Positions 7,747 through 30,539 are shown, numbered from the stretch's first letter. The stretch is DNA of 43,498 bases from Patescibacteria group bacterium (GCA_018896315.1 JAHIMV010000081.1:1-43498); one strand, 5' to 3'. Notes: generated by a model from the sequence alone, not told the origin. A program made the numbers and translations.

Positions 7747-7876
7747 ACCCAGCACTTATTTTGCGAAACAGAAACAAAATTTTATATATATAACAAGGTA
7801 AAATAAGTTTATTTTTCGCGAAAGAGCGTTAAAACACTCTTTCGCCAAGACATACCTAGCAAAATAAGTGCTGGGT
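7747..7876 (+). repeat. family B 130-nt palindromic element, copy 1 (metG-cvpA spacer)
   Basis: 16-bp terminal inverted repeat acccagcacttatttt / aaaataagtgctgggt and inner hairpin gcgaaagag..ctctttcgc. By eye identical to copy 3, including the following gctcaaa. Confidence 0.9.
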
Positions 7877-7936
7877 GCTCAAATTTCTAATAAAATTTAA
7901 TTCGCTACGCTTTAAAATTTTAACAAATTTGGCACT

Positions 7937-8437
7937 ATGAGTTTTTTTGATTTAATTTTATTATTACTTTTGTTCGGTTTTGTTTGGTTTGGTTTTTGGA
8001 ATGGATTGATTCGAACACTCGGGGGAATAATCGGACTTGTCTTAGCAGTTTTTGTTGCTGGACAATGGTATGAAACTGTAGCTTTAAAATTGCTGCCTTT
8101 TTTAAGTGATAATTTAAGTTTAGCTCGTCTACTGTCTTTTATTCTTGTTTTTATTATTACTCAGTTTATTATTATTTGTTTACTCAAAGTAGTAAACAAA
8201 ATTTTTAATCTTCCTGTTTTAAAAATTCTTAATCGTCTAACTGGTGCAATCTTTGGCTTGATTGAGGGAGGATTAATTTTGGGCTTGGTTTTATACTTTT
8301 CAACTAAATTTACTCTAGTGCCCAACTGGGCAGAGATTTTAAACAGTTCAAGTATTGCCCCGACTTTGATCTCTTTTGGTAAAATTTTGCAGCCTCTTTT
8401 ACCCCAAGTTTTAAAACAAATTCAGTCATTAATATAA
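7937..8437 (+). CDS. cvpA: CvpA-family small membrane protein
   Basis: 166 aa with about four hydrophobic helices and an N-terminal FDLILLLLLFGFVWFGFWNGLIR pattern like colicin V production protein family members. Confidence 0.55.
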   Translation: MSFFDLILLLLLFGFVWFGFWNGLIRTLGGIIGLVLAVFVAGQWYETVALKLLPFLSDNLSLARLLSFILVFIITQFIIICLLKVVNKIFNLPVLKILNRLTGAIFGLIEGGLILGLVLYFSTKFTLVPNWAEILNSSSIAPTLISFGKILQPLLPQVLKQIQSLI

Positions 8438-8552
8438 ACGTAATACTAATCTACGAATGACATACGAATACTACGAATATTAGTATAATTAGTATCAATT
8501 CGTCCTAGACCCGTTCGGGACGGACTAGGGTATATTGGCATTGATTTTTTTT
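8438..8552. repeat. family D copy 2 (before nrdD) with a nested 27-nt GC hairpin
   Basis: ctacgaatgacatacgaatactacgaat / attagtataattagtatcaattcgt[..]atattggcattga. Insert at 8504..8530. Confidence 0.8.
8504..8530. repeat. 27-nt GC-rich hairpin nested in family D copy 2
   Basis: cctagacccgttcgggacggactaggg interrupts aattcgt|atatt, which is continuous in the other D copies. Confidence 0.7.
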
Positions 8553-11500
8553 ATGAAGCAACAAATAATTAGAATAAGAAGAAGAAACGGTCGTTTAGCT
8601 AAATTCGATCAAGAAAGAATTACCACAGCAATTTATCAGGCCGTTACAGCTGTTTCTGAAGAAGACGGCAAATTGTCCCAAAAATTATCTAATCAAGTAG
8701 TTAAAATAATTAGTAGGCGCTTTAAAGAGAGGGTTCCAACCGTAGAAGATGTTCAAGACGTTGTTGAAGAAGTTTTAATTCGTGCTGATTTAACAGAAAT
8801 TGCCAAAGCTTATATTATTTATCGCGAACAAAGGAGGAAACTTAGAGAAACAGTTAAGGTTACCAATGAAAGCTTGGGCATGGTGGATCAATACTTAAAA
8901 GAAGTTGATTGGGAAGTAAAGGAGAACGCCAACATGACATATTCTTTACAAGGGTTAAATAACTATATTTCTAATGGCGTAACAAAAAGATATTGGTTTG
9001 AAAAAGTTTATCCTTCAGAAATTAGAGAATCAGCTGAAGGAGGGGATTTTCATATTCATGACTTGGGGATTTTAGCGCCGTATACTTTTTTTGGCAAAGA
9101 AACAGTTGTTATTAAATTGAATGGAAAAATTAAGTTAGTTTCTTTAGAAAGTTTATATAACAATATAATTCAAAAAGAAGATTTTCTTAATAAAAAAGAT
9201 CAAGTTTTCGCTAAATATCCTCGTAATTTATTTATTTTAGATAAAGAAGGTTGGACCAAGGTTTCCCGATTAGTAAAAAAGAAAAAACAAAGAGAAATGC
9301 GTTTTATAAAGTCAGAACAGGGAAGGAGTGTTATTGTTACCGATAATCATCCTTTTATTGTAAAAAATCAAAAAAATGGGAAACAAAAAGAAATTTTGGC
9401 AAGTGAGGTTCAAGAAAAAGAACATTTATCTTTGAGTTGCTTTTTGCCTTCTTTACTTTCTTCTGAAAAATTATTTACTAAAAAAGAGATATATTTAGCT
9501 CAAGAATTAATAGATAAAGATTATCAAGATTTCTTTTTAGAAGGATATAAGTGGCAGGATTTTATAGAAAACTGGGGAGGATCTCTTAAGGTAAAAGGAA
9601 CCTTAAGTGTTTCTAATAAATCTAATAGTTTAGATAATTATTTTGAACTTTCTGAGGATTTTGGTTATTTGGTAGGAATTTTTATTGCAGAGGGCCATTA
9701 TCATAGCTGGCGGATGGAAATAACCTTAGGAGAAGAGAAAATAATAAAAAAGGTACAAAAAATTTGTTCCAATTTAGGAATAAGAACTTATATTAACAAG
9801 CACGAACAAACTAAGCGAATATCTATTAATTGCAGCACTTTAAAACTTGTTTTTGAAAAAGTCTTCCAAATAAAACCTTTTAGCCAAAATAAAACTTTAC
9901 CAATAGATATTCTAAATTACAATTTTGATTTTATAAAAGGGCTAATTGCTGGAATTATTGACGGAGATGGTAATGTTAGTACCCAAGGAAGCCAAATTAT
10001 TATTAGGACAGCTTCAAGAACGATGTTAGAACAAATGGCCATTTTATTGCAATTTTTTGGCATTATTTGTCGAGATAGAGCTATTGAAGGAGTTGGCAGT
10101 AAAAGGGTTTATAATGGCAGGGAGATTATTCAAAAATTTCCTCTTTACGGAATATCTTTTTCTAAAAAAGAAAAATTAGATTTACCTTCTTTTAAATATC
10201 AAAAAGCTAATGTAGCCCAGAAAAATTGGCGTGTAGAAGAATATGGTTGGAATAAAGTTTTAAACAATAAATCCACCTCTATAGCAGATGATTTTATTTA
10301 TGATATTACCACTGATTCACATACATTCCTTTGTAATGGCTTATTGGTTCATAATTGCGTGGGGTGGAGTTTAGAGGACATATTGCGCAAAGGATTCACT
10401 GGTGTTTATGGTAAAATTTCTTCAAAACCAGCCAAACATTTAAGAGTAGCTTTAGGCCAGTTAGTTAACTTTTTTTACACACTTCAAGGGGAAGCAGCAG
10501 GAGCAATTGCTGTTTCTTCTTTTGATACTTTTTTGGCTCCTTTTATTCGTTATGATAAATTAACTTATTCTCAAATAAAACAGGCCATGCAGGAGTTTAT
10601 GTTTAATTGTAATGTGCCAACTCGAGTTGGGTTTCAATGTATGTCAGAAGATACAGAAATTTTAACTAAAGATGGGTGGAAAAATTATCGTCAGGTTAAA
10701 AAAGGAAGCATTATTGCTACCTTTAACATTGAAAAGGGTTTTATTGAATATTTGCCAGTTAATAATGTTTTTACTAAGAAATACAAAGGAATAATGTATA
10801 ACTTAAAGAATAGAATTAGCGATCAATTAATTTCTCCAGAGCATAGGGTAGTGAGAAAAATGTTTAATTCAGAAAGCTATACTTTAGAAAAAATAGAAAA
10901 AGTTTTAAGCCTAAAATCACCGTTTATGGTGCCAGTGGGAAGTGAAGGAAATGTTTTAGGAGATGATAAATTAGATGAAAATATAGTTAAATTAACAGCT
11001 TGGTTAATAGCGGAAGGAACAATAGACAAAGGTAGACGAGGGAGTGGAAGAATTAGTATTTACCAATCAAAAGAAAAAAACCCTGAAAATTATGAAGAGA
11101 TTAATTTTTTGTGCCATAATTTAGACTTAAAATATACCGAAAGAATGCAAAGAGGATTAGGTGCTGATTGTAATGTTATTCGATTTAACGCAAATAGCAC
11201 TAGAAAAATTTTAAATTATTTTAATAGCAATAAAAATAAAGGTATTAAATTTATTCCAGACAGTATACTTAATTCAGATGTAGAAACTTCAAGATTGTTT
11301 TTAGAGACATATATTAAAGGTGATGGACATGATGGATGTAAAATCACCACTACTGAAGAAAAAATCAAAGATGGTTTGCTTCAAGTTATAGTTAATGCTG
11401 GTTATGGCGCTACGGTTTTAGTTCGCAATCCTGATAATGATCTGTCAAAAAAAGATAGATATATTATTAGACTCATTAAACATAAAGATACTTATATTAA

Positions 11501-14500
11501 TCAAATTAAAAAAGTTAATTATCAAGGAATTATTTGGTGTCCCAACACTAAAAATGAGACAGTTGTCGCGAGAAGAAAAGGAAAAGTATTTATTACTGGA
11601 AATACGCCTTTTACAAATATTACACTTGATTTAAATCCACCTAAAAATTTAGCTAAATTACCAGTGATTGTCGGAGGAAAAACTAAAAAAGAAAAATATG
11701 GAGATTTTCAAAAAGAAATGGATTTATTTAATAAAGCTTTTTACGAAGTAATTATGGAAGGAGATGCCACTCAAAGGGTTTTTACTTTTCCAATACCGAC
11801 CATCAATATTACCAAAGACTTTGACTGGGATAATCCTAATTACAAATCAATATGGGACGCAACGGCTAAATATGGGATTAATTATTTTTCTAACTTTATT
11901 AATTCAGAGTTAGATCCAGAAGATATCAGAAGTATGTGTTGCCGGTTGCGCTTAAACAATAAAGATCTTCATCATCGAGGGGGTGGGCTTTTTGGCTCAG
12001 CTCCATTAACAGGTTGTTATGATAAAGAAACAGAAATTTTGACTGAAAGCGGTTGGAAGTTTTTTAAAGATTTAACTAAAAACGAGAAAGTGTTTACCTT
12101 AGCTGAAAATAACGAAATTGAGTTACACAAGCCAAGAAAAATTTTCAAATATGATTATAAAGGGGAAATGTATCAATTTAAAGCTAAATCTTTGGATTTA
12201 TTAGTTACCCCAAACCACCGGATGGTGATAGACCAAAGATATAAAGATAAAAGAAGGTTTGTTGAAGCTAAAGACTTAAAGCCAGCTAATCATCGGATTC
12301 CTAAGCAGGGTGTATGGAAAAGAGATGAGATAGAACACTTTATTTTGCCTGGGATTGAATTTACAAAATACGGGAGACAAGGAATAACTCCTTATCAGGT
12401 ATTCAGAGAGGCTTTAAAAATAGAAATGGATAATTGGCTTGAATTTTTTGGATTTTGGTTGGCAGAGGGCTGTGCTGACAATAAAAATATTGCTAAACGT
12501 CATGGTTATAGGGTGATAATCACACAGGTTAATAAGAAGAAAAATAGAGAAATCCAAAAAGTTTTAGATTGTTTACCCTTTAATTATTATATAGAAAGAA
12601 AGATAAATTTTGTAATTTGTAATAAACAGCTTTGGACTTATTTACGGCAATTCGGAAATAAATATCAAAAGTTTATTCCAAAGGAGATTAAAAATTTAGG
12701 TAAGAGACAATTGAGAATTTTGTTTAATTGGATGGTTAAGGGCGATGGCCATATTAGAAAAACTACTGGACAGATTAATTATTGGACGTCTTCCGAAAAA
12801 TTAGCCGATGATTTGCAAGAAGTAATTCTAAAAATAGGATGGCTTGGCACTATAAGTGCTCGAAAGAGAAATATATCTCAAATTAGAGGCAGAAAAGTAA
12901 AGTCGGGCATTGTTTATACAATAGGAGTACAAAAATCAAAACATTATAGGTTAAGAAAAAATAGCATAAAAAAGATTTATTATAAGGATAAAGTGTATTG
13001 TTGTGAAGTAAGAAATCATACTGTTTTCGTAAGGAGAAATGGAAAAGTTAGTTGGTGCGGGAATTCAATTGGGGTAGTAACCATAAATCTTCCGCGAATT
13101 GGCTATTTAACCAAAACAAAAAAGGAATTTTTTAACAAATTGGAAAATTTAATGGATTTGGCCAAAGAAAGCTTAGAAATAAAAAGAAAAACTTTGGAAG
13201 ATTTTATTGAAAAAGATCTTTATCCTTATTCAAAATTTTATTTATCTGATATTAAGAAATTAAGAGGACAATATTGGGCAAATCATTTTTCAACCATTGG
13301 TCTGGTGGGAATGAACGAAGCTTTACTTAATTTTTTAAAAAAAGATATGATTTCAGATGAGGGGCAGAAATTTGCTCAAGAAGTTTTAGATTTTATGAAT
13401 CAACGTTTACTTGATTACCAGAAAGAAACTAAAAATATTTATAATTTAGAAGCAACACCGGCAGAGGGCACTAGCTATCGTTTAGCTAAAAAAGACAAAG
13501 AACATTATCCTCAGATTATTACGGCCGGAAAAGATGTTCCTTATTATACTAATTGTGTATCAGATGATACAGATATCTTAACTAAAGAAGGATGGAAAAG
13601 ATATAACGATGTAAAAGTCAGAGACGAAATTCTTACATTAAATATGGATAGGAAAATATTAGAGTATCAAAGGATATTAAATATTCATACTCAATATTTA
13701 GATAATAAACCAATGTTTAATATCAAATCTCAAAAACAAGATCAACTAATAACCCCAAATCATATGGTTGTATATGATGGAGACAGAAAAGGAAAATATA
13801 GTTTAGCAACACCTAGAAATTTACCTTGGAGAATAATTATTCCAATGGCAGGGAAAATAAATCAATACACTAAAGAGATAGATGATGACATTATAAGGAT
13901 GATAGGATGGATAATTACTGAAGGACATTTTGAAACAGATTGTAATGCAATTAGAATAACACAAGCTGAATGGTGTAATAAAAATAAATTTAAGGAGATA
14001 GGAGAGATATTAAAAAAACTTAAAGTTAAATTTAAAATACATGGAGATAAGAGAGGAAGATCAATTTTTAGAATTTCAGCTTCTGATGGAATAAAAATAA
14101 GAAGTAAGTATATATCAAACAAGCATATCCCAAGATGGTGCTTAAATGAATTAGACTATAGACAACTGAACATTTTATTGGAAACCATGATGAAAGGAGA
14201 CGGAAGTATAAGTAAACACTCTAAATATTTTTGTTCTGGTGATAAACAATTAATAGACGAATTTCAAGAACTATGCATTAAGACATGCAGAAGAGCCGTT
14301 ATATGTGATTATAGAGAAATGACTGCTTGCTATCATGCAGTTCCTTCTGATTTCCATCATACTGAAATAAATAAAAATAATATTAAAGAAATAAAACACA
14401 CAGGCATTGTTTGGTGTCCAGAAGTGGAGAACCATACTTTTGTAGCAAGAAGAAACGGGAAGCCGTTTATAACAGGTAATTCAACCCAATTACCAGTTGA

Positions 14501-16115
14501 TTACAATGGAGATTTATTTAGTGCTTTGGCCTTACAAGATAATTGTCAGACAAAATATACTGGAGGATGTATTGAGAAAGGGAATAAAGTTTTAACCAAC
14601 AAAGGGTTGTTGAATATAGAATATATAGTGAAGAATTTTAATAAACTCAAACCAATTAAGGTTTTAGGTTATAATATTAAAAAAGGAATCAGTGAATGGG
14701 ACAGCGTTGTTGATGCTGTTTTTGTTGATGTTAAGAAAAAAAATAAGATAAAAATAAAAGCAGAGAGAGGTTTAGATATTATTACTTCTGATTGGCATCC
14801 ATTCTTTGTTTTAGAAAGAATTAAAGTTAATTCAATTTGTCCTGTTTGTCAGCAAAAAGTAGAAAACATTAAAGGTTTTGCTAGCCATCTGGGGCGTAAC
14901 CCAAAGTGTAGGGAAGAGTATTTGTTAATGTTTAAATATCAAGTGTTAGAGAAAAGGGCGGATGAATTGAAAAAGGGCGACTATATTTTACAAAATTTTG
15001 ATAATTTATATCCAGAGAAATCTACGGCGTTAAATAACGATTTGATGTGGTTGATAGGTTTTTTCATCGGCGATGGGTGCATTTCAAAGTTTATAGATAA
15101 TAGAGGTGGGCACAATTTAGAGAAATATAGAGTTCGTTTTCATAGCGAAAACCAAAGAGCATTACAAAAAATTGTTAGGATAATTTCAGAGCATTTCCAT
15201 ACAGAAGTTAAAGTTATAAAAAACGACAAAAGAAGTAAATCTCTGAGAGAGGTTACTATATCTAAAAAGGTTGTTTTAGATTTTTTCTTCAAATATGGTT
15301 TTAATTCTGGCAAAAAGGTTTATAATATTTCTGTCCCTCAAAAAGTAAGGGAAAATTTTAACAAAAGTAATGTTTTTGCTTTTTTGTCTGGTCTAATAGA
15401 CAGTGATGGACATATTAGTAAAAGAGATGGTGATTTTGAATATCAGACGGTTTCTGATAAATTAGCCGAAGACATCTTAGAGATTTCTACTCGAGCAGGA
15501 TTAATGATTAGTAAGAGCCTAAAAGCAAGTAAAAGAAAAAATGAAGTTAATATATATAGATTGAGAATTCCGCGATACCAAATGACGAGGATAAAAGATA
15601 AGTTGAATGATTCAGTTAATTGTTCAAAAATTAAAACGAAGTTGTCGGATAGAAAAAAGCGTCAGCTTCCGGTAATAAGAGTAACACAGATTTCAAAAGT
15701 TGATATGAAAGATAACCAATTCTACGATTTAACAACAAAAAAGAATCACAATTATTTAGCAGGTAAAAATACTTTAGTTTTTATCCATAATACTGTTTTT
15801 CATGCTTTTTTAGGGGAAAGAATTTTTAATTCAGAATCAGTTAAAAGTTTAATTAAAAAAGTCTTTGTAAAATTTCGTCTCCCTTATTTTACTTTAACTC
15901 CTACATTTAGCATTTGTCCAACTCATAATTATATAAATGGCAAACATTTTACATGTCCTGAATGTGGAGAGAAAACAGAGGTTTATTCAAGGGTTGTTGG
16001 ATATTTACGTCCTATTCAACAATGGAATAAAGGCAAACAAGAAGAGTTTAAACAAAGAAAAGTGTTTGACGTAGAAAATAAAAAGAATCTGATTTCGTCA
16101 GAACTCCAAAATTAA
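8553..16115 (+). CDS. nrdD: anaerobic (class III) ribonucleoside-triphosphate reductase interrupted by five inteins
   Basis: First ATG at 8553 (the track start 8535 is a TTG inside a repeat). Exteins carry an ATP-cone N-terminus, FHIHDL, CVGWSL, TPFTNITLD, MCCRLRL, SIGVVTINLPRIG, YYTN-S-TQLPV, YTGG-TVFH, C-terminal CPECG and the glycyl-radical motif RVVGYLRP. They sum to about 707 aa. Confidence 0.95.
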   Translation: MKQQIIRIRRRNGRLAKFDQERITTAIYQAVTAVSEEDGKLSQKLSNQVVKIISRRFKERVPTVEDVQDVVEEVLIRADLTEIAKAYIIYREQRRKLRETVKVTNESLGMVDQYLKEVDWEVKENANMTYSLQGLNNYISNGVTKRYWFEKVYPSEIRESAEGGDFHIHDLGILAPYTFFGKETVVIKLNGKIKLVSLESLYNNIIQKEDFLNKKDQVFAKYPRNLFILDKEGWTKVSRLVKKKKQREMRFIKSEQGRSVIVTDNHPFIVKNQKNGKQKEILASEVQEKEHLSLSCFLPSLLSSEKLFTKKEIYLAQELIDKDYQDFFLEGYKWQDFIENWGGSLKVKGTLSVSNKSNSLDNYFELSEDFGYLVGIFIAEGHYHSWRMEITLGEEKIIKKVQKICSNLGIRTYINKHEQTKRISINCSTLKLVFEKVFQIKPFSQNKTLPIDILNYNFDFIKGLIAGIIDGDGNVSTQGSQIIIRTASRTMLEQMAILLQFFGIICRDRAIEGVGSKRVYNGREIIQKFPLYGISFSKKEKLDLPSFKYQKANVAQKNWRVEEYGWNKVLNNKSTSIADDFIYDITTDSHTFLCNGLLVHNCVGWSLEDILRKGFTGVYGKISSKPAKHLRVALGQLVNFFYTLQGEAAGAIAVSSFDTFLAPFIRYDKLTYSQIKQAMQEFMFNCNVPTRVGFQCMSEDTEILTKDGWKNYRQVKKGSIIATFNIEKGFIEYLPVNNVFTKKYKGIMYNLKNRISDQLISPEHRVVRKMFNSESYTLEKIEKVLSLKSPFMVPVGSEGNVLGDDKLDENIVKLTAWLIAEGTIDKGRRGSGRISIYQSKEKNPENYEEINFLCHNLDLKYTERMQRGLGADCNVIRFNANSTRKILNYFNSNKNKGIKFIPDSILNSDVETSRLFLETYIKGDGHDGCKITTTEEKIKDGLLQVIVNAGYGATVLVRNPDNDLSKKDRYIIRLIKHKDTYINQIKKVNYQGIIWCPNTKNETVVARRKGKVFITGNTPFTNITLDLNPPKNLAKLPVIVGGKTKKEKYGDFQKEMDLFNKAFYEVIMEGDATQRVFTFPIPTINITKDFDWDNPNYKSIWDATAKYGINYFSNFINSELDPEDIRSMCCRLRLNNKDLHHRGGGLFGSAPLTGCYDKETEILTESGWKFFKDLTKNEKVFTLAENNEIELHKPRKIFKYDYKGEMYQFKAKSLDLLVTPNHRMVIDQRYKDKRRFVEAKDLKPANHRIPKQGVWKRDEIEHFILPGIEFTKYGRQGITPYQVFREALKIEMDNWLEFFGFWLAEGCADNKNIAKRHGYRVIITQVNKKKNREIQKVLDCLPFNYYIERKINFVICNKQLWTYLRQFGNKYQKFIPKEIKNLGKRQLRILFNWMVKGDGHIRKTTGQINYWTSSEKLADDLQEVILKIGWLGTISARKRNISQIRGRKVKSGIVYTIGVQKSKHYRLRKNSIKKIYYKDKVYCCEVRNHTVFVRRNGKVSWCGNSIGVVTINLPRIGYLTKTKKEFFNKLENLMDLAKESLEIKRKTLEDFIEKDLYPYSKFYLSDIKKLRGQYWANHFSTIGLVGMNEALLNFLKKDMISDEGQKFAQEVLDFMNQRLLDYQKETKNIYNLEATPAEGTSYRLAKKDKEHYPQIITAGKDVPYYTNCVSDDTDILTKEGWKRYNDVKVRDEILTLNMDRKILEYQRILNIHTQYLDNKPMFNIKSQKQDQLITPNHMVVYDGDRKGKYSLATPRNLPWRIIIPMAGKINQYTKEIDDDIIRMIGWIITEGHFETDCNAIRITQAEWCNKNKFKEIGEILKKLKVKFKIHGDKRGRSIFRISASDGIKIRSKYISNKHIPRWCLNELDYRQLNILLETMMKGDGSISKHSKYFCSGDKQLIDEFQELCIKTCRRAVICDYREMTACYHAVPSDFHHTEINKNNIKEIKHTGIVWCPEVENHTFVARRNGKPFITGNSTQLPVDYNGDLFSALALQDNCQTKYTGGCIEKGNKVLTNKGLLNIEYIVKNFNKLKPIKVLGYNIKKGISEWDSVVDAVFVDVKKKNKIKIKAERGLDIITSDWHPFFVLERIKVNSICPVCQQKVENIKGFASHLGRNPKCREEYLLMFKYQVLEKRADELKKGDYILQNFDNLYPEKSTALNNDLMWLIGFFIGDGCISKFIDNRGGHNLEKYRVRFHSENQRALQKIVRIISEHFHTEVKVIKNDKRSKSLREVTISKKVVLDFFFKYGFNSGKKVYNISVPQKVRENFNKSNVFAFLSGLIDSDGHISKRDGDFEYQTVSDKLAEDILEISTRAGLMISKSLKASKRKNEVNIYRLRIPRYQMTRIKDKLNDSVNCSKIKTKLSDRKKRQLPVIRVTQISKVDMKDNQFYDLTTKKNHNYLAGKNTLVFIHNTVFHAFLGERIFNSESVKSLIKKVFVKFRLPYFTLTPTFSICPTHNYINGKHFTCPECGEKTEVYSRVVGYLRPIQQWNKGKQEEFKQRKVFDVENKKNLISSELQN
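9084..10355 (+). mobile_element. intein 1 of nrdD (424 aa, LAGLIDADG homing endonuclease); begins with Thr
   Basis: Inserted between ..DLGILAPY and CVGWSL. Block A TFFGKETVVIKLNG, block B VTDNHPF, LAGLIDADG motifs GYLVGIFIAEGH and LIAGIIDGDGN, C-terminus LLVHN followed by +1 Cys. Confidence 0.85.
10638..11603 (+). mobile_element. intein 2 of nrdD (322 aa, LAGLIDADG)
   Basis: Inserted between ..TRVGFQ and TPFTNITLD. Starts CMSEDTEILTKDGW, block B ISPEHRV, motifs LTAWLIAEGT and ETYIKGDGH, ends VARRKGKVFITGN followed by +1 Thr. Confidence 0.9.
12015..13064 (+). mobile_element. intein 3 of nrdD (350 aa, LAGLIDADG)
   Basis: Inserted between ..GSAPLTG and SIGVVTINLP. Starts CYDKETEILTESGW, block B VTPNHRM, motifs FFGFWLAEGC and NWMVKGDGH, ends FVRRNGKVSWCGN followed by +1 Ser. 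Confidence 0.9.
13554..14480 (+). mobile_element. intein 4 of nrdD (309 aa, LAGLIDADG)
   Basis: Inserted between ..VPYYTN and STQLPVDY. Starts CVSDDTDILTKEGW, block B ITPNHMV, motifs MIGWIITEGH and ETMMKGDGS, ends VARRNGKPFITGN followed by +1 Ser. Confidence 0.9.
14568..15791 (+). mobile_element. intein 5 of nrdD (408 aa, LAGLIDADG, with extra Cys/His knuckle)
   Basis: Inserted between ..QTKYTGG and TVFHAFLGE. Starts CIEKGNKVLTNKG, block B ITSDWHPF, motifs LIGFFIGDGC and LSGLIDSDGH, ends NTLVFIHN followed by +1 Thr. Contains CPVCQQKVENIKGFASHLGRNPKC. Confidence 0.9.
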
Positions 16116-16257
16116 AAAACACTTTAATTATAGGAACCTTTCGCTACGCTCAAGAACCCTGCTATTCGCTACGTTTATAGTAAGAACCTGCTTCGCAGAA
16201 CCTTGAAATTAAATATTATTATATAGAAGTTAAAGTATTTTAATTATAAAGTATTGT
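16116..16257 (+). repeat. family F element, expanded (nrdD-nrdG spacer)
   Basis: ggaacctttcgctacgctcaagaaccctg .. gtaagaacctgcttcgcagaaccttgaaattaaat .. ttttaattataaagtattgtATG. Confidence 0.7.
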
Positions 16258-21833: not shown

Positions 21834-21978
21834 ACACCCCAATTTTGCGAGATATGTCATGGCAACGCACTCGCTTCGCTCGGGCTTATTCAGCCACTGC
21901 GTTGAGAGGACTAAACAAGAGATGTTAAAATAATAAAAAATGTTAGCAGAGTTTAAGGTGGCAAAATTGAGGCGGGGT
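21834..21978 (+). repeat. family C ~145-nt element with ACCCC..GGGGT termini upstream of the atypical kinase gene
   Basis: acaccccaattttgc ... ggcaaaattgaggcggggt outer pairing, inner caacgca..tgcgttg stem, followed by the same gctcataattgtaacg leader module as at rplE. Confidence 0.6.
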
Positions 21979-22030: not shown

Positions 22031-23122
22031 ATGGCAAAAGAATTTGAAAAAGATTTTCCTTGGTCTTTATCTAAAACTAAAACAGAAGGCTTGAATAAAG
22101 AATTTAATTTAAGCCAATTGTCCAAACGTCATCAATATTTTAAAGCCAAAGTTGGAAAAGAAATTGAAGGACTAAAGCAATATCTTGATAAGAATACTTT
22201 TATTGCTTATTGGTTAGGTAAAAAGAATTCAGGAAAAGGCACTTATTCAAAATTAATGTTAGAAATTTTTGGCAAGGATAGAATTAATCATGTTTCTGTT
22301 GGAGACGTAGTGAGAGAGGCGTGTGAAAAACTAAAAGATCCGAAACAAAGAGAAGAGATAGTTGATTATTTGAAAAAAAATTATCGGGGATATATTTCTG
22401 TTGATGAAGCAGTAGAAAGCATCTTAAATAGAGACACAAAAAGCCTTTTACCCACAGAATTTATTCTTACTTTAGTTAAAAGAGAAATTGATAAAATGCC
22501 CAAAAAGAGCCTTTTTATTGATGGTTTTCCTCGTAATATGGATCAGGTCTCTTATTCTTTGTATTTCAGAGATTTAATCAATTACAGGGAAGATCCAGAT
22601 GTTTTTATTGGAATTGATATCCCTGAGCAAGTAATTGATCAAAGAATGAAATCAAGAGTTGTTTGTCCTAAATGTCATACGCCAAGGAGTTTGAAATTAT
22701 TGCCAACTCAAGAGGTCGGTTATGATCCAGAAAAAAAGGAATTTTATTTAATGTGCGATGATCCAGATTGTGATAAAGCAAGAATGACTGCTAAAGAAGG
22801 AGATAATTTAGGCATTGAATCAATTAGAGAAAGATTAGAGTTAGACGAAAAATTAATAAATAAAATATTTTCTTTACACGGAGTACCAAAGGTTTTATTA
22901 AGAAACGCTTTACCTGTTTCTGAAGCAGAAAAATTAGTAGATAAGTATGAAATAACACCAGAATATGATTATGAATTAATTGAAGAAAATAAAGTACAGA
23001 CGAAAGAAAAACCATGGACAGTAAAAGATGATCAGGGAAGGGAAATTTATAGTCTTTTGGCTCCGCCAGTAGTAGTTTCTTTAATTAAACAGTTGTATAA
23101 CATTTTTGTTGAAAAGAATTAA
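22031..23122 (+). CDS. atypical adenylate-kinase-fold nucleoside monophosphate kinase (363 aa)
   Basis: P-loop GKKNSGKGT, DGFPR motif, Zn-type LID CPKCH..CDDPDC, plus N-terminal (~60 aa) and C-terminal (~100 aa) extensions absent from the canonical adk at 38128. Confidence 0.6.
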   Translation: MAKEFEKDFPWSLSKTKTEGLNKEFNLSQLSKRHQYFKAKVGKEIEGLKQYLDKNTFIAYWLGKKNSGKGTYSKLMLEIFGKDRINHVSVGDVVREACEKLKDPKQREEIVDYLKKNYRGYISVDEAVESILNRDTKSLLPTEFILTLVKREIDKMPKKSLFIDGFPRNMDQVSYSLYFRDLINYREDPDVFIGIDIPEQVIDQRMKSRVVCPKCHTPRSLKLLPTQEVGYDPEKKEFYLMCDDPDCDKARMTAKEGDNLGIESIRERLELDEKLINKIFSLHGVPKVLLRNALPVSEAEKLVDKYEITPEYDYELIEENKVQTKEKPWTVKDDQGREIYSLLAPPVVVSLIKQLYNIFVEKN

Positions 23123-24479: not shown

Positions 24480-24604
24480 AAATGCGATACCAATATACTA
24501 ATACATACGAATTATACGAATAATTTGAAGTATTAGTGTGTCGTAATGTTAAATTTGTATTATTAGTATCAATTTGTATATTAGCATTGATTTAGTTCTT
24601 TGTA
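24480..24604. repeat. family D copy 3 (tuf-rpsJ spacer)
   Basis: gcgataccaatatactaatacatacgaattatacgaat ... attagtatcaatttgtatattagcattgat. Confidence 0.8.
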
Positions 24605-25031: not shown

Positions 25032-25089
25032 ACCCTGTTAAATAATTTCGCTTTTAGCGAAATTGCCGCAAGGCGGCATTTAACAGGGT
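25032..25089 (+). repeat. family A Y-shaped 58-nt core, copy a (rpsJ-rplC spacer)
   Basis: accctgttaaat[aatttcgc-tttt-agcgaaatt][gccgc-aag-gcggc]atttaacagggt: a 12-bp outer stem enclosing two hairpins. Confidence 0.9.
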
Positions 25090-25337: not shown

Positions 25338-25955
25338 ATGAAATTCATTCTTGGGAAAAAAATAGAAATGTCCCAAATTTTTAAAGGGGACAAGGTTATT
25401 CCGGTAACAAAAATTCAAGCCGGCCCTTGTTTGATTACTCAAATTAAAACACAAGAAAAAGACGGTTATGAGGCTATTCAGATTGGATTTGCTAAGAAAA
25501 GAAAGAATACTAAATCATTATTAGGTCATTTAAAAAAGGGTTTAGCTGACAAAGAGTATAATCGATATTTAAAAGAATTTAAAACAGAAAGGGGTGATTT
25601 AAAAATTGGAGATAAGATAAAAGTTGATATTTTTCAACCTGGAGATAAAATAAAGATTGTTGGTACCTCTAAAGGAAAAGGGTTTCAAGGAGTAGTTAAG
25701 CGACATGGTTTTCATGGAGCATCAGCTACACATGGAACCAAAGATCAAGAAAGAATGCCTGGTTCAATTGGAGCCACTGGTCCTGCCAGAGTTTTTAAAG
25801 GAAAAAAAATGCCTGGAAGAATGGGAGGCAAACAAGTTACAGTTAAAATTTTAGAGATTATAGAGGTTAATCCAGAAGAAAATTTATTATTAGTCAAAGG
25901 ATCTGTTCCTGGGGCAAGGAACTCATTATTAGAAATTACTCAAGTAAAATATTAA
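25338..25955 (+). CDS. rplC: 50S ribosomal protein L3
   Basis: ILGKKIEMSQIF.., GKGFQGVVKRHGF, conserved cluster position. Confidence 0.93.
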   Translation: MKFILGKKIEMSQIFKGDKVIPVTKIQAGPCLITQIKTQEKDGYEAIQIGFAKKRKNTKSLLGHLKKGLADKEYNRYLKEFKTERGDLKIGDKIKVDIFQPGDKIKIVGTSKGKGFQGVVKRHGFHGASATHGTKDQERMPGSIGATGPARVFKGKKMPGRMGGKQVTVKILEIIEVNPEENLLLVKGSVPGARNSLLEITQVKY

Positions 25956-26650
25956 TGTTAAAAGTTTCAGTTTACAATCAAGAAGGAAAAGTAATTGGAC
26001 AAGAAGAATTAGATCCTGAAATTTTTGGATTGGAAAGTAAACCTGATTTAATTCATCAAACCGTAGTATCTCTTATGGCTAATCAGCGCCATGCTTTTGC
26101 TCATGTTAAAACTCGTTCAGAAGTACGGGGAGGAGGAAGAAAACCTTGGAGACAAAAGGGGACTGGTCGGGCTCGAGCAGGCACAATTCGTTCACCTTTG
26201 TGGCGGGGCGGTGGAATCACTTTTGGTCCAGATAAAAATAGGAATTATTCTCAGAAAATTAATAGAAAAGCTAAAAGACAAGTGCTTTTTATGTGTCTTT
26301 CTGATAAAGTTAAAGAAGAAAGAATGTATGTTTTGGATAAGTTAGAAATGCCTGAAATCAAAACCAAAAAGTTTACTCAAATTTTATTTAAGTTGATTCC
26401 TGAATATAAAGACAAGACTTCCGCCAAAGGCGGATCCGCCTCCGGCGGAAAAAAAATCCTTTTTGGCTTGCCTGAGAAGGATTTAAATATAATTAGATCT
26501 GTACGAAATATTAAAGGTTTAAAAACTATGCCGATTATTAATTTAAATATTTTAGACTGTTTAAAGGCAGACTATTTATTAACCACTTTAGACGGTGTAA
26601 AAAAAATTCAAGAACATTTTAAAATAGATGGCTCACCATTAAATAAATAA
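25955..26650 (+). CDS. rplD: 50S ribosomal protein L4
   Basis: RSEVRGGGRKPWRQKGTGRARAGTIRSPLWRGGG. ATG overlaps the rplC stop by 1 nt. Contains a GC-rich hairpin pair in frame at 26421..26448. Confidence 0.93.
   Translation: MLKVSVYNQEGKVIGQEELDPEIFGLESKPDLIHQTVVSLMANQRHAFAHVKTRSEVRGGGRKPWRQKGTGRARAGTIRSPLWRGGGITFGPDKNRNYSQKINRKAKRQVLFMCLSDKVKEERMYVLDKLEMPEIKTKKFTQILFKLIPEYKDKTSAKGGSASGGKKILFGLPEKDLNIIRSVRNIKGLKTMPIINLNILDCLKADYLLTTLDGVKKIQEHFKIDGSPLNK
26421..26448 (+). repeat. GC-rich double-hairpin motif inside rplD
   Basis: ccgcc-aaa-ggcgg at ccgcc-tcc-ggcgg, translated SAKGGSASGG. GC-rich island in an AT-rich gene. Confidence 0.75.
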
Positions 26651-26735
26651 AACATGGGAATTTTCACCCAGTTTAGAAATTTAATGGGGTAAAAGAAGTA
26701 ATTGATTGAAAATTAGATATATTAAAAATACTTTT

Positions 26736-27218
26736 ATGGCAGAAAAAAGACTTAAAAAATTTCTAACGGGGTTTAAAAGAAAAATAAAGCCAGCGGTTAA
26801 GAAAGAAGAAGTTAAAAAGGAAAAAGTGGAAAAGGCAAAGGAAATAGAAAAAGATGAGAAAATAGAAGATAAAAAGCAACAGAAATCTAAAACAGAAATA
26901 AAAAAAACTGTTAAAAAATTAATACAAAGACAAGGAGTTGATATCTCAATTTTACTAAGACCAATTATTACAGAAAAAGCAACTGACCAAGAGGTCAAGG
27001 GATGCTATATTTTTGAAGTTAATTCAAAGGCAAACAAAATTTCAATAAAAAAAGCAATTGAACAAATTTACGGAGTCAAACCCTTAAGAGTAAATATTAT
27101 TCGAGTACGTGGGAAAAAAGTAAGATATGGGCGTTCAACAGGTAAAACAAAGGCATGGAAAAAAGCTTTAGTTTTTCTAAAAAAAGGAGATAAGCTGCAG
27201 TTTGTGCAGAAATCCTAA
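26736..27218 (+). CDS. rplW: 50S ribosomal protein L23 with ~70-aa Lys/Glu-rich N-terminal extension
   Basis: L23 core ILLRPIITEKA..FEV...ANK..IK.A.E..YGVKP..VN begins about residue 75. First ATG is at 26736 (track start 26706 is TTG). Confidence 0.85.
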   Translation: MAEKRLKKFLTGFKRKIKPAVKKEEVKKEKVEKAKEIEKDEKIEDKKQQKSKTEIKKTVKKLIQRQGVDISILLRPIITEKATDQEVKGCYIFEVNSKANKISIKKAIEQIYGVKPLRVNIIRVRGKKVRYGRSTGKTKAWKKALVFLKKGDKLQFVQKS

Positions 27219-27395
27219 ATAATAAATAACAAATAACAAACAATATCCAATGACCAAAATCCAAATGACCAAAACAAATACGTTTAGAATTTAGAATTTT
27301 GCCCCGGCCTTCGTAGCCGAAGCTACTTCGGCGGAGTAGGCAATTTGTTTAGAATTTGGTGCTTGGTGTTTGGAATTTGGAGCGAAGCGACTATT
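27219..27395. repeat. structured spacer (rplW-rplB) ending in the gagcgaagcga..ATG motif
   Basis: ccaaaatccaaatgaccaaaacaaat versus atttgtttagaatttggtgcttggtgtttggaatttgg arms, GC hairpins in the centre. 3' end ggagcgaagcgactattATG resembles 830..849. Confidence 0.55.
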
Positions 27396-28238
27396 ATGCT
27401 TAAAATATCTAAACCAACAACTCCAGGTAGGAGAAAAATGAGCGTGGTTGATACTAGTGGACTATCAAAAGTGAGACCATTAAAGAAATTGGTTAGTATA
27501 AGAAAACAAAAAGCAGGCCGAAGCAAAGGAAAGATTACTGTTCGTCACCAAGGCGGGGGAGAAAAAAGATTTTACAGAAAGATTGATTTTAGGCAAGATA
27601 AATTTGATATCCCGGCGAAAGTTAAAACATTGGAATATGATCCAAATCGTTCTGCTTGGATTGCTTTATTACATTATACGGACGGAGAAAAGAGATATAT
27701 ACTTGCTCCGCACAGTCTTAAAGTAGGTGATGAGATTATTAGTTCAAAAAAGAAGATTGATGCAAAATTAGGCCATCGCATGCCTTTAAAATACATTCCA
27801 GTGGGCATGGCCATTCACAATATAGAATTAATGCCAAATCAAGGTGGAAAAATTGTTCGTTCGGCTGGTAATTCAGCTATTTTAATGGTTGTGAATGATG
27901 GGTTTGCGCAAATTAAACTGCCCTCATCTGAAAGAAGGCTTGTTAAAGAAGATTGTTTAGCTAGTTGCGGTCAGGTTAGTAATCCAGAGTGGCGATTTAT
28001 TCGCTGGGGAAAAGCTGGTAGGATGCGTCATAGAGGAATTAGACCTTCAGTTCGCGGTAAAGCAATGGCCCCAGTGGCTCATCCACACGGTGGAGGAGAG
28101 GGTAATTCACCTATTGGTTTAAAAAATCCTAAAACCCCTTGGGGAAAACCAGCCTTAGGGCCAAAGACTAGAAAAAAGAAAAAATGGACTAATAAATATA
28201 TTGTCCAAAGAAGAATTAAAAAAAGAAGAAAAAAGTAA
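27396..28238 (+). CDS. rplB: 50S ribosomal protein L2
   Basis: MLKISKPTTPGRRKMS.., HPHGGGEG. The track ORF start 27345 lies inside the upstream repeat, so the internal ATG at 27396 was chosen. Confidence 0.93.
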   Translation: MLKISKPTTPGRRKMSVVDTSGLSKVRPLKKLVSIRKQKAGRSKGKITVRHQGGGEKRFYRKIDFRQDKFDIPAKVKTLEYDPNRSAWIALLHYTDGEKRYILAPHSLKVGDEIISSKKKIDAKLGHRMPLKYIPVGMAIHNIELMPNQGGKIVRSAGNSAILMVVNDGFAQIKLPSSERRLVKEDCLASCGQVSNPEWRFIRWGKAGRMRHRGIRPSVRGKAMAPVAHPHGGGEGNSPIGLKNPKTPWGKPALGPKTRKKKKWTNKYIVQRRIKKRRKK

Positions 28239-28248
28239 AGGGCTTTCT

Positions 28249-28282
28249 TAAAAATTTCAAGTTGTAGACGTAGAAATTTTTA
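28249..28282 (+). repeat. H1 hairpin module, copy after the rplB stop
   Basis: taaaaatttc .. gaaattttta (10-bp stem, different sequence, same position). Preceded by taa-agggcttt. Confidence 0.7.
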
Positions 28283-28295
28283 TTAGAAAACCTTT

Positions 28296-28353
28296 ACCCT
28301 GTTAAATAATTTGTAAAGCAAATTAAAAATCAAAAATTTTTGTTTAACAGGGT
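28296..28353 (+). repeat. family A core, copy b (rplB-rpsS spacer), divergent inner hairpins
   Basis: Same outer stem accctgttaaa..tttaacagggt. Both inner hairpins are replaced by different self-complementary sequences (aatttg-taaag-caaatt; aaaaat-caa-aaattttt). Confidence 0.85.
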
Positions 28354-28383
28354 GCTCGAAAATTAATAAATTAATTTTTTCGC
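28354..28383 (+). promoter_or_regulatory. leader module L1 (gctc + AT palindrome + ttcgc-ATG) before rpsS
   Basis: gctcgaaaattaataaattaattttttcgc then ATG. No SD-like purine tract. Confidence 0.8.
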
Positions 28384-28680
28384 ATGGGAAGAAGTTTGAA
28401 AAAAGGACCTTGGGTTGACCCAAGATTACTCAAAAAAATTTCCAATTTAAAAAGAGGAGATAAAACAATAATTAAAACCTGGTCACGTAATTCAACAATT
28501 ACTCCGGAAATGATTGGTTTTACAATTGGGGTCCATAATGGTAAGACACATTTATCAGTATTTATTGTTGAAAATATGGTCGGGCACAAGCTTGGAGAAT
28601 TTTCTCCGACCAGAAAATTTGTCAAACATGGAGGTAAGATGCAAAGAGGATTAGAAGCAGCCGTTAAGAAATCAAAATAA
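28384..28680 (+). CDS. rpsS: 30S ribosomal protein S19
   Basis: [34 protein letters not shown]. Confidence 0.95.
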
Positions 28681-28883
28681 TCCCTCACCCTTTGGCGATA
28701 ATACTTCGCATTAGTGCTTCGCATTTTTAAACAAGTGTATTTAAAATTAAAAATAAAAAATCAAAATGCAAAATTTAGGTATCAAAAATTTTTCTTGAAA
28801 ATTTTTGATGATTGTATTTTATTTAATTTTAACATTTTTAATTGTCATTTTGATATTTGATATTTACATTTTACATTTATATT
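28681..28883. repeat. AT-rich long-hairpin spacer (rpsS-rplV), E-like
   Basis: Central 11-bp hairpin atcaaaaattt/aaatttttgat (28781..28809) flanked by an A-rich left arm and a quasi-complementary T-rich right arm (..ttttaattgtcattttgatattt). Confidence 0.6.
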
Positions 28884-29438
28884 ATGCAAGTAAAAGCTAA
28901 AGGAAAATATTTAAGAATATCCAGTAAAAAGATGAGGCTGGTAACAGACCTAATTAGAGGAATGGACTTAAAAGATGCCTTAGATTCTTTAAATTTTGTT
29001 CCTAAAAAGTCAGCCCGTTTTATTAACAAGGTTTTAAAGTCAGCTTTAGCTAATGCAGAACATAATTTTGATTTAAAAAAAGAAAATCTTTTTATTAAAG
29101 AAATTTTTGTTAATGAAGGGCCTACTCTTAAGAGATGGAGGCCAAGAGCTTTTGGTCGGGCCGGACAGGTTCGTAAAAGAAGCTCACATTTAGAAATTAT
29201 TTTAGGGGAAAAAATTCCTAGTTCAGAGACCAGATCTGTTAAAACAAAAATTAAAGAACCAATAATTGAATCTATTTCTAAAGATAAGATTGAAGAAAAA
29301 AAGCCGGTGGAAGAAACAGAAGAAGAAACGTTAAATCGACTTCAAGGAAAACATCAATCTAAACCAAATTATTACCAAAAAAAGGGTAAAGGGTTTAGAG
29401 GGAGTTTAAAAAAGATTTTTAGAAGAAAAACTATATAA
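28884..29438 (+). CDS. rplV: 50S ribosomal protein L22 with ~70-aa C-terminal extension
   Basis: MQVKAKGKYLRISSKKMRLV.DLIRG..V..AL..L.F, RA.GRA..VRKR.SH. Internal ATG at 28884 chosen over the track start 28857. Confidence 0.88.
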   Translation: MQVKAKGKYLRISSKKMRLVTDLIRGMDLKDALDSLNFVPKKSARFINKVLKSALANAEHNFDLKKENLFIKEIFVNEGPTLKRWRPRAFGRAGQVRKRSSHLEIILGEKIPSSETRSVKTKIKEPIIESISKDKIEEKKPVEETEEETLNRLQGKHQSKPNYYQKKGKGFRGSLKKIFRRKTI

Positions 29439-29448
29439 AGAGCTTTGT

Positions 29449-29481
29449 CTGAAATTTGGAGAACTAGCGAACAAATTTCAG
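29449..29481 (+). repeat. H1 hairpin module, copy after the rplV stop
   Basis: ctgaaatttg ..agcgaa.. caaatttcag (10-bp stem). Preceded by taa-agagctttgt. Confidence 0.7.
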
Positions 29482-29494
29482 TAACAAAACCTTT

Positions 29495-29622
29495 ACCCAG
29501 CACTTATTTTGCGAAGCAAAAACAAAATTTTATATATAACAAGATAAGATAGGTTTATTTCTCGCGAAAGAGCGTTAAAACACTCTTTCGCTAAGACTCA
29601 CTTGGCAGAATAAGTGCTGGGT
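29495..29622 (+). repeat. family B element, copy 2 (rplV-rpsC spacer), diverged
   Basis: Same termini (acccagcacttatt / aataagtgctgggt) and the same inner gcgaaagag hairpin, with several substitutions and indels. Confidence 0.85.
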
Positions 29623-29687
29623 GCTCAAATTTGTAACGAAATTTCCTTCGTTACTTCGTAACTCGTAAATTTAGACAAATTTAGCAT
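29623..29687 (+). promoter_or_regulatory. leader module L2 variant before rpsC
   Basis: gctcaaatttgtaacgaaatttccttcgttac...gacaaatttagcat then ATG. 5' caaatttg and 3' caaattt co-vary relative to the other copies. Confidence 0.7.
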
Positions 29688-30332
29688 ATGGGAAGAAAAG
29701 TAAATCCAAAAATTTTCCGTATTCCCTTAATCAGAGATTGGGAATCAAAGTGGTTTGCAAAAAAGCACGAATTTAAACGATTCTTAAAAGAGGATATACA
29801 GATTAGAGAGTTTTTATCAAAAAGACTAAAGAATTGTGGTATTTCTAATATTAGTATTGAAAGGTTGGCTAATATTATAAGAATCAGCATATCCACTGGT
29901 AAGCCTGGATTAATTATTGGTCGAGGAGGTCTTGATATTGAAAAATTAAAAAAAGAATTAAAAGTTTTTGTCAGCGATGGAATTGTTTTAGAAGTTAATG
30001 TTATTGAAGAGAAAAAACCAATGCTTTCCGCTGATGTGATTTTAGAAGGAGCAATTGCTGATTTAGAAAAAAGGTTTCCTTTCCGTCGAGTGATGAAAAA
30101 AGTTATTAGACAGGCTAAAACAAGCGAGGCCAAAGGAATGAAAATCATCCTTAGCGGACGTTTGGGGGGAGTTGAGATTTCTCGATCAGAAAAATTGATT
30201 TGGGGGAACTTACCGCTTCATACTTTGCGAGCAGACATTGATTATGCTCGTGGCACAGCCGCAACAACATATGGTTCAATCGGAGTTAAAATCTGGGTTT
30301 ATCGAGGAGAAAAATTTAGTAATTCTGTCTGA
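29688..30332 (+). CDS. rpsC: 30S ribosomal protein S3
   Basis: MGRKVNPKIFRI..W.SKWFA, KH domain GKPGLIIGRGG, GRLGG.EI.R.E. Confidence 0.95.
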   Translation: MGRKVNPKIFRIPLIRDWESKWFAKKHEFKRFLKEDIQIREFLSKRLKNCGISNISIERLANIIRISISTGKPGLIIGRGGLDIEKLKKELKVFVSDGIVLEVNVIEEKKPMLSADVILEGAIADLEKRFPFRRVMKKVIRQAKTSEAKGMKIILSGRLGGVEISRSEKLIWGNLPLHTLRADIDYARGTAATTYGSIGVKIWVYRGEKFSNSV

Positions 30333-30378
30333 TATTTTTAAGTCCAGAGGACGTAGAAAATTCAGCTACAGAATTGCT

Positions 30379-30508
30379 ACCCAGCACTTATTTTGCGAAA
30401 CAGAAACAAAATTTTATATATATAACAAGGTAAAATAAGTTTATTTTTCGCGAAAGAGCGTTAAAACACTCTTTCGCCAAGACATACCTAGCAAAATAAG
30501 TGCTGGGT
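30379..30508 (+). repeat. family B element, copy 3 (rpsC-rplP spacer)
   Basis: Reads identically to 7747..7876. Confidence 0.9.
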
Positions 30509-30539
30509 GCTCAAAAATTAATAAATTAATTTTTTTCGC
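30509..30539 (+). promoter_or_regulatory. leader module L1 before rplP
   Basis: gctcaaaaattaataaattaatttttttcgc then ATG. Confidence 0.8.

Follow-up and report, generated by a model that had tools for sequence, protein, structure and literature searches.

What brings one palindromic DNA element, identical in every base, into two separate gene junctions of the same bacterium? The question is raised by contig JAHIMV010000081.1 of a Patescibacteria group bacterium (GCA_018896315.1), whose whole stretch of 43,498 nucleotides (nt) is the window analysed here. The element, which we call family B, stands between metG and cvpA and again between rpsC and rplP. A first-pass annotation had pointed out this pair and a diverged third copy, and had proposed very recent copying and, for the ends that family B shares with two other hairpin families (A and C), a common recognition partner such as a nuclease, a transposase or an RNA-binding factor. 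The window is an entire contig (C41) of a metagenome-assembled genome (G000; 1.10 Mb in 147 contigs, 32% G+C), and the sequencing runs that contain the stretch are groundwater metagenomes. As far as comparison of sequences can tell, family B is a real, recently copied palindromic insert in an exchangeable slot of cassettes that were themselves inserted between cistrons. We consider it probable, with some reserve, that family B is a non-autonomous mobile palindromic element, lacking any open reading frame (ORF), of a superfamily framed by ACCC...GGGT stems, and that it was recently copied into a second slot.

Two identical copies of the family B hairpin

The window holds three copies of family B:

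7747..7876, plus strand: family B hairpin copy 1, 130 nt, in the metG/cvpA spacer
29495..29622, plus strand: family B hairpin copy 3, 90% identical to the other two, in the rplV/rpsC spacer
30379..30508, plus strand: family B hairpin copy 2, in the rpsC/rplP spacer, the same as copy 1, the identity running on through GCTCAAA to 30515

Pairwise comparison of 7747-7883 with 30379-30515 gave 137 identical bases out of 137, and the neighbouring bases outside differ on either side. The observation of two identical family B hairpins is thereby confirmed. The diverged copy noticed at 29495 is also present (89.8% identity to the identical pair, with 29495-29629 aligned), and the genome as a whole contains four copies, two identical and two at about 90%, the fourth being on contig C57 (4366-4501, minus strand, 89.7% identical). 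The last seven identical bases, GCTCAAA, are the start of an adjoining module (H3, below) and lie outside the 130-nt hairpin. The hairpin itself has a perfect outer stem of 18 bp (ACCCAGCACTTATTTTGC / GCAAAATAAGTGCTGGGT) and an interior made of an AT-rich arm and a further hairpin (GCGAAAGAGCG..CACTCTTTCGC), and is branched overall. Pfam agrees with the gene contexts first given, with metG (PF09334) and cvpA (PF02674) around copy 1, rpsC (PF00189) and rplP (PF00252) around copy 2, and rplV (PF00237) and rpsC around copy 3. Whole spacers form much more stable folds than shuffled sequences do (z = -9.7 and -8.6). In Rfam 15 at the gathering score the window yielded only tRNAs and no known structured RNA family, E-value searches of the spacers gave chance-level matches only, and the metagenome copies matched no family; over window, spacers and metagenome copies together, only tRNAs and one rRNA were returned.

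The assembly was checked by comparing Logan contigs from four groundwater runs of three studies with both identical-copy loci. The left and right junctions of both loci are each crossed by separate contigs with zero mismatch, and in one run (X3) the 137-nt repeat forms a unitig of depth 60.8, about twice that of its unique flanks (32-48). Because contigs of independent groundwater assemblies span all four junctions and the repeat has about twice the depth of its flanks, the duplication is real, and the concern that it might be an artefact is answered.

The hairpin as the middle part of a cassette

Between stop codon and start codon, the entire spacer is taken up by a cassette of three parts, with the family B hairpin in the middle. 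The first part, H1, is a hairpin; its 5' strand opens at the upstream stop codon or close to it, and its 3' strand ends one base before ACCC (for example TAAAGGGCTTTGT...ACAAAACCTTTA and TAGTGATTTTAT...ACAAAATCGCTA). The middle slot holds an ACCC...GGGT hairpin of family A, B or C. The third part, H3, is a leader palindrome that opens with GCTCA and closes at the downstream ATG or includes it (for example GCTCAAATTT...AAATTTGGCATG and GCTCATAATTGT...ACAATTATGGCA); its 5' arm is GCTC(A), whose pairing partner, ..GGC or ..ATGGC, lies at the downstream start codon. The three families had been credited with common ACCC..GGGT-GCTC termini, and the ACCC...GGGT part of that description stands, but the GCTC is no part of the hairpin, because GCTCA opens H3. 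The modules around the three window copies are as follows:

7682..7746, plus strand: H1 of cassette 1, starting at the metG stop codon TAA, its 3' strand ending one base before ACCC
7877..7936, plus strand: H3 leader of cassette 1, GCTCAAATTT...AAATTTGGCACT, ending at the cvpA ATG
29436..29494, plus strand: H1 of cassette 3, TAAAGAGCTTTGTCTGAAATTTGG...CAAATTTCAGTAACAAAACCTTT, starting with the rplV stop codon
29623..29687, plus strand: H3 leader of cassette 3, ending at the rpsC ATG, 94% identical to the module at the same junction of G017, a genome of another genus
30317..30378, plus strand: H1 of cassette 2, TAGTAATTCTGTCTGA...CAGAATTGCT, replacing the last 14 rpsC codons and giving a new stop codon, TGA, at 30330-30332
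30509..30539, plus strand: H3 leader of cassette 2, GCTCAAAAATTAATAAATTAATTTTTTTCGC, ending at the rplP ATG

The H3 module of cassette 2 also precedes three other genes of the window. The sequence GGGTGCTC occurs 34 times in the 1.1-Mb genome, about 30 of these occurrences closing an ACCC...GGGT hairpin, and a pattern search of the genome found 28 cassettes; a same-strand ORF ends 24-72 nt before ACCC in 27 of them, and one starts 30-65 nt after GGGT in 24. H1 and H3 subtypes combine freely with the hairpin families, and one cassette (C78:3650-3770) has H1 joined straight to H3, with neither hairpin nor GCTCA. H1 and H3 have a common AAATTT-based motif in alternating orientation and can pair with each other, an arrangement that is a mosaic of the kind known from bacterial interspersed mosaic elements (BIMEs).

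The modules H1 and H3 differ at each of the three window copies of family B. Since the identity of copies 1 and 2 stops sharply at the edges of the element, and the H1 and H3 flanking the two are of different subtypes, the very recent copying first proposed is supported. Copy 3 lies 884 bp from copy 2 and is only 90% identical to it, which makes simple local homogenisation unlikely.

Arrival of the cassettes and exchange of the hairpin

The junctions of G001, a relative of the same genus (RpsC 93% and MetG 95% identical), are compact at all three family B sites: the rplV/rpsC spacer has 4 nt against 249 nt in G000, the rpsC/rplP spacer 2 nt against 207 nt, and metG and cvpA overlap in ATGA where G000 has 252 nt. 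The cassettes are insertions relative to this sister species. More distant relatives have compact junctions too, or other repeat families. The metG/cvpA cassette was placed exactly on the ATGA, with TATAA on its left and TATGA on its right, so that both the upstream stop codon and the downstream start codon were rebuilt; a possible TAT(A/G)A duplication flanks only this cassette, as a whole. At rpsC/rplP the cassette replaced the end of rpsC, which changed from ..EKFEKAKPNQIKVNLKA to ..EKFSNSV, and homology resumes at the rplP ATG. Two runs (X1 and X6) contain a variant joint leading from 30317 to 30540 without cassette sequence, consistent with the presence, in these groundwater samples, of a G001-like organism or of an allele that lacks the cassette. 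Most genomes of the family measure 0.6-0.8 Mb and G001 0.8 Mb, against 1.1 Mb for G000; the cassettes and hairpin families may account for part of this excess.

The distribution of the cassettes is patchy. The motif at the junction of H1 and ACCC has about 30 occurrences in G000, 8 in G017, 3 in G013 and 3 in G018 (a genome that is 83% complete), and no true one in the congeners G001, G012, G020 and G003. G017 has the same H1 and H3 as G000 at both rpsC junctions (H3 94% and the rpsC/rplP H1 92% identical) and the same derived RpsC end, ..EKFSNSV*. Within these same modules G017 holds family A where G000 holds family B, at both junctions, so that the slot is fixed and the hairpin inserted in it exchangeable. 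In G018 a family B copy, 78% identical, lies in a cassette of the same kind. A search for B-armed elements in G000, 60 relatives and 77 metagenome stretches also recovered about 20 metagenome contigs in which the 18-nt B arms frame differing interiors, of 37-38, 47, 55, 58, 105, 128, 145-155, 183-185 and 203 nt, mostly between H1-like and H3-like flanks; in some the cargo is inverted (L144 compared with L155, for example). Of the 77 stretches, about 50 matched a single arm by chance, archaeal 16S genes among them.

A GC-rich, Y-shaped core of paired hairpins with the loops GAATAG and CTATTC (for example GCCCGAATAGGGC and GGGCTATTCGCCC) is common to many B-armed elements and family C. It was seen in the B-armed interiors of metagenome loci L144, L149, L154 and L198 and at 21860-21910 of the window, and had no Rfam match.

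GIY-YIG genes framed by ACCC...GGGT arms

The first-pass annotation correctly stated that no transposase gene is present in the window, but elsewhere the genome has eight ORFs like Y1 transposases, which are considered below, and nine GIY-YIG matches, about five of them intact, including those on contigs C100 and C135. PF01541 matches above the cut-off fall in single-domain ORFs of 85-95 amino acids (aa), and in this protein family Y6, Y17, G19, R27, H31 and E63 are invariant; the best solved-structure matches are the UPF0213 proteins 1zg2 (E = 1e-5) and 1ywl (2e-4), and the matches in NCBIfam are weak and below threshold. A scan with a three-sequence alignment, at one genome per species, returned 387 relatives, of which the best 80 were analysed; these loci come chiefly from Patescibacteria, with some from metagenome-assembled genomes labelled Bacteroidota, Desulfobacterota and Ignavibacteriota.

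At 66 of these 80 loci the gene is framed, by pattern, by both family A arms. For the best inverted-repeat score the median is 14, twice the 7 of the shifted control. Among 39 distinct arm pairs one position is UA in 31, CG in 5 and GC in 3, with zero mismatch, and the overall covariation score of the arms was reached by 2 of 500 shuffles. Eight of the 66 armed loci have cassette-type flanks, and in 26 a host ATG lies at most 13 nt from the 3' arm, most often as GGGTAAATG. In G000 itself, ACCC elements directly abut the start codon of a long ORF in 3 of 112 cases against about 8 in the control, which is a weak test, the control being inflated by internal ATGs.

The gene can also occupy the slot between H1 and H3, as it does in G017 and in loci L059-L064 and L095. 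In G017 the slot contains a complete GIY-YIG ORF of 89 aa; its boundaries are ACCCTGTTAAATAA, about 35 nt upstream of the ATG, and TTATTTAACAGGGT, which falls on the final codons (for ..SYLTG). In G000, contig C128 has a truncated GIY-YIG ORF between family A arms lengthened to 24 nt. Family D arms (CCCCGTTAGAAAT.. / ..TTTTAACGGGG) frame other GIY-YIG subfamilies, in G008 and on contig C135 of G000, and a further subfamily in G017 is framed by ACCCCCACACC.. / ..GGTGTGGGGGGT arms; ORF-less elements with family D arms and with ACCCCCACACC arms are present in G000. Given the arms at 66 of 80 loci and their covariation, families A, D and the ACCCCCACACC type have the look of stem-framed GIY-YIG genes reduced to miniatures without an ORF. 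With such genes framed by ACCC/GGGT arms, the shared ends mark a superfamily whose full-length members carry a GIY-YIG gene, for which we use the working name stem-framed GIY-YIG element superfamily. Family B has the ACCC...GGGT stem base and sits in the H1/H3 slot of the ORF-bearing members; an ORF-bearing relative with the same arms is found for A, D and the ACCCCCACACC type but, in G000, 60 relatives and 77 metagenome stretches, not for B. The earlier suggestion of a shared nuclease or transposase for these ends has thus gained a candidate in the GIY-YIG gene.

The C128 locus (1100-1710, upstream of rplJ) consists of two tandem units, a family A element with the GIY-YIG remnant followed by an H3 leader, and a family C element followed by the same H3 leader. 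Both units end in ATGGC(A), as if hairpin and leader had been inserted twice at the start codon.

Likeness to the Ssn nucleases

Judged by gene and repeat architecture, the closest known system appears to be that of the Ssn nucleases with their NTS and SRM hairpin repeats. SsnA is a single-domain GIY-YIG protein of 94 aa that cuts single-stranded DNA beside a hairpin repeat (Chenal et al. 2025, PMC11893778); the repeat brackets its own gene and has hundreds of genomic copies, and the authors see the NTS-ssnA-NTS unit as insertion-sequence-like (PMC11893778). The genes described here resemble it in encoding a single-domain GIY-YIG protein of about 90 aa without a DNA-binding domain, and in being bracketed by a palindromic motif that is also abundant in ORF-less genomic copies; the repeats, too, are oriented, mostly intergenic and clustered around genes. 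There are also differences. The arms described here pair across the gene, which lies in the loop and has its last residues, YLTG, encoded by the 3' arm, whereas an Ssn/SRM gene sits between two complete hairpins. The stem base is ACCC/GGGT and not a CGTC tag, the miniature copies are longer, branched and of variable cargo, and the nearest solved structures of the proteins are UPF0213.

Proposed origin of family B

Of the mechanisms considered for the superfamily, mobilisation by the GIY-YIG nuclease is the best supported, and this nuclease is the likely mobilising enzyme. The loop of the ORF-bearing members holds only the gene of this single-domain nuclease, of 85-90 aa. The protein would recognise the stem base in single-stranded DNA, as the Ssn nucleases recognise their hairpin repeats, and so start copying. 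Family B itself, for which no ORF-bearing parent is known, would have been moved in trans by such an enzyme. The whole cassette (H1, hairpin and H3) was inserted at the stop/start junctions of operons, and the two identical copies would have arisen when the hairpin was copied, very recently, into a second slot. A palindromic shape, together with the rebuilding of the stop and the start codon, would let insertions in essential operons survive, and the stems may possibly keep the stop and start codons close together.

More tentatively, as a possibility rather than an expectation, we suggest that there is a class of minimal mobile elements, not described before, of which the hairpins of families A-D and their cassettes are the non-autonomous half. 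The autonomous unit of this class would be a single-domain GIY-YIG gene within a covarying stem, about 0.3 kb in all, the stem would serve as a slot for the exchange of cargo such as the family B interior, and the elements would spread in Patescibacteria and other anaerobes by landing on stop/start junctions and rebuilding both codons. GIY-YIG genes have been listed among the genes transferred out of Patescibacteria (PMC12455944), and full-text literature searches found no description of these elements in Patescibacteria.

An ultra-small genome of 1.1 Mb, with relatives of 0.6-0.8 Mb, has admitted repeat cassettes to almost all junctions in its ribosomal-protein operons and retained them. That the cassettes rebuild both codons suggests a way for selfish DNA to enter those regions of a genome that are most essential and most tightly packed. 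Through a link between ACCC...GGGT ends and GIY-YIG proteins, orphan palindromic repeats, a large class, would gain a candidate enzyme, and the Ssn/SRM principle would be extended to the candidate phyla radiation and to a different architecture; nucleases of this kind would be of practical interest as sequence- and structure-specific cutters of single-stranded DNA. The gain from family B itself is more modest: its arms are a new family, its cargo can be exchanged and it was copied very recently, all of which makes it a good substrate for mobility tests.

Several observations weigh against regarding family B as a mobile member of this superfamily. No clear direct repeat flanks the family B hairpin itself. 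No ORF-bearing B-armed element was found in G000, the 60 relatives or the 77 metagenome stretches, the longest being 203 nt. G018 has a family B copy and cassettes with no detected GIY-YIG gene of this family and no Y1 transposase, in a genome that is 83% complete. Among 12 relatives compared, the family's GIY-YIG genes occur in those with cassettes and in those without, so that their presence or absence does not discriminate. The SRM consensus of the Ssn system (HGTCWYN(0-2)YYVSBRHN(0-5)WNVSBRGN(0-2)RNCYNB) had 0 matches in the 1.1-Mb genome, where five shuffles gave 0-4. Two further points would also fit a selected RNA function: all 28 cassettes of G000 are co-oriented with their genes, and the cassette modules are better conserved between G000 and G017 than the ribosomal-protein coding DNA, which beside the rpsC junctions is only 58-71% identical.

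Alternative explanations

An RNA function is the alternative that survives best, although we regard it as unlikely. The cassettes, family B included, would then be selected mRNA elements, either intercistronic processing or stability sites or structures that couple stop and start, and their likeness would come from selection and recombination. The co-orientation of all 28 cassettes from stop codon to start codon and the conservation of the modules agree with this, as do the very stable folds of the spacers (z about -9), the pairing of H3 with the start-codon region, and that of H1 with the stop-codon region, in which TAA/TTA co-varies with TAG/CTA. The cassettes are nevertheless missing from G001 and from most of the family, and so are dispensable. 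G.U pairs are equally frequent on both strands (66 versus 66), and the absence of any asymmetry in this test gives no sign of selection acting only on RNA. Identical arms can enclose cargo of anything between 37 and 203 nt, in either orientation, a protein gene can fill the same slot, family A copies also lie inside coding regions, and no Rfam family matches. If family B is instead a mobile insert, the fixed orientation and the codon-rebuilding ends would reflect which insertions survive in essential operons.

Ordinary gene conversion between older, diverged family B copies, with no dedicated machinery, could in principle have made copies 1 and 2 identical, and we think this improbable. Four family B copies in one genome would offer material for it, short repeats can be homogenised by recombination, and the block of identity takes in the GCTCAAA that is common to both H3 types. 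On the 5' side, however, no sequence is shared; the difference begins at the very base that precedes ACCC, and the two H1 modules are of unrelated subtypes. Copy 3, the nearest neighbour, has stayed at 90%, and conversion would leave unexplained both the exchange of A for B at orthologous slots and the arrival of the cassettes in the lineage.

A further candidate, somewhat less probable again, is that family B is an element of the repetitive extragenic palindrome (REP) or REPIN type moved by a genomic Y1 (HUH) transposase, either a REP-associated tyrosine transposase (RAYT) or one of the IS200-IS605 type. A search of the genome for such enzymes, as first advised, did find some:

contigs C63, C43, C121, C94, C139, C30, C80 and C123: eight Y1-transposase-like ORFs of 203-238 aa, each matching PF01797

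The repeat-free sister G001 has no such match, and enzymes of this kind act on hairpins in single-stranded DNA without target duplication (PMC11893778, PMC3733652). The elements described here share with REP/REPIN-RAYT systems and BIMEs the abundance of palindromes between co-directional genes (PMC2817692, PMC3733652), the mosaics of several motifs in alternating orientation and the lack of a target duplication, and, with REP-RAYT, a proposed mobilising enzyme whose gene is flanked by the same repeats. That enzyme, however, would be a GIY-YIG nuclease and not a HUH transposase. Each Y1 gene is flanked by different short hairpins of its own and none by hairpins of families A, B, C or D, and G018 has family B and cassettes with no Y1 match; on these two grounds a Y1/RAYT origin was rejected as the principal explanation. 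The elements also carry no GTAG or CGTC tag and, at 38-185 nt with nested branches, are much longer than REPs; a REP is a palindrome of 20-40 nt, whereas family B has 130 nt, is branched and has paired ACCC/GGGT ends. The eight Y1 ORFs, each within its own short hairpin repeat, resemble several separate RAYT/REP-like systems in one 1.1-Mb genome.

That the identical pair is an artefact of a collapsed or chimeric contig is hardly credible: the genome is a fragmented metagenome assembly of 147 contigs, but the 137-nt repeat is shorter than a read, and the junction-crossing contigs of four runs and the doubled unitig depth in X3 speak against it.

Comparison with miniature elements and homing genes

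Bacterial MITEs (miniature transposable elements with inverted repeats), such as the Correia elements of Neisseria, the pneumococcal BOX and the Rickettsia palindromic elements (PMC10969869), are similarly short and non-autonomous, with terminal inverted repeats, and are co-transcribed with genes. The modular build of the cassettes recalls the A-B-C structure of BOX, and both groups can occupy in-frame positions inside genes (as family A does at 39896) and are patchy among close relatives. Family B does have the terminal inverted repeats of a classical MITE, in its perfect 18-bp stem. Unlike the case of classical MITEs, no DDE transposase parent was found for the elements, and no direct repeat or clear TA-type duplication at the hairpin. 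The parent form carries, in place of a transposase, a nuclease gene of about 0.27 kb, and insertion is at stop/start junctions with both codons rebuilt.

The Seg proteins of T-even phages are free-standing GIY-YIG homing endonucleases, two to three times larger than the proteins described here and with a DNA-binding domain. Their genes are likewise intergenic and co-oriented, present or absent between close relatives, and spread to the same intergenic site, but they are not known to be framed by inverted repeats or to have given rise to miniatures without an ORF.

Other repeats and features of the window

Families A and C are represented in the window by the following elements:

21835..21978, plus strand: family C element, CACCCCAATTTTGC ... 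GCAAAATTGAGGCGGGGTG; the GCTCAT leader after it ends at the ATG at 22031
25032..25089, plus strand: family A Y-shaped hairpin of 58 nt, ACCCTGTTAAAT..ATTTAACAGGGT, in the same slot of another cassette
28296-28353, 31431-31488, 31950-32007, 32406-32463 and 36494-36551: further family A copies
39896-39953: inverted family A copy inside a 147-aa ORF (39640-40083)

Family C has four more copies on other contigs. Family A has about 50 elements in the genome, a figure that rises to about 90 when family D is included; elements are also nested, with A within A and a B-type stem within A.

Three other kinds of repeat occur in spacers of the window:

5354-5441, 8438-8534, 24480-24604, 33808-34074, 38800-38869 and 42836-42982: second family of long palindromes, AT-rich and imperfect, CGATACCAATATACGAAT... 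/ ...ATTCGTATATTAGCATCG
28681-28856, 33265-33375, 34624-34911, 35278-35499 and 37862-38127: third spacer family, 110-290 nt with AAAATCAAAAATC... / ...CATTTTGATATTT arms
6117-6178 and 16116-16257: fourth, short repeat, GAACCTTTCGCTTCGCTCAAGAACCTTGAAATTAAA..., in two spacers

A relative of the second family stands at the rpsC/rplP junction of G002, and the third type is found at rplV/rpsC or rpsC/rplP junctions of G003, G005 and G008. The fourth repeat is also present on contig C25 and within a cassette of G013. Finally, 8535-16115 of the window is a single ORF of 2526 aa with internal direct repeats.

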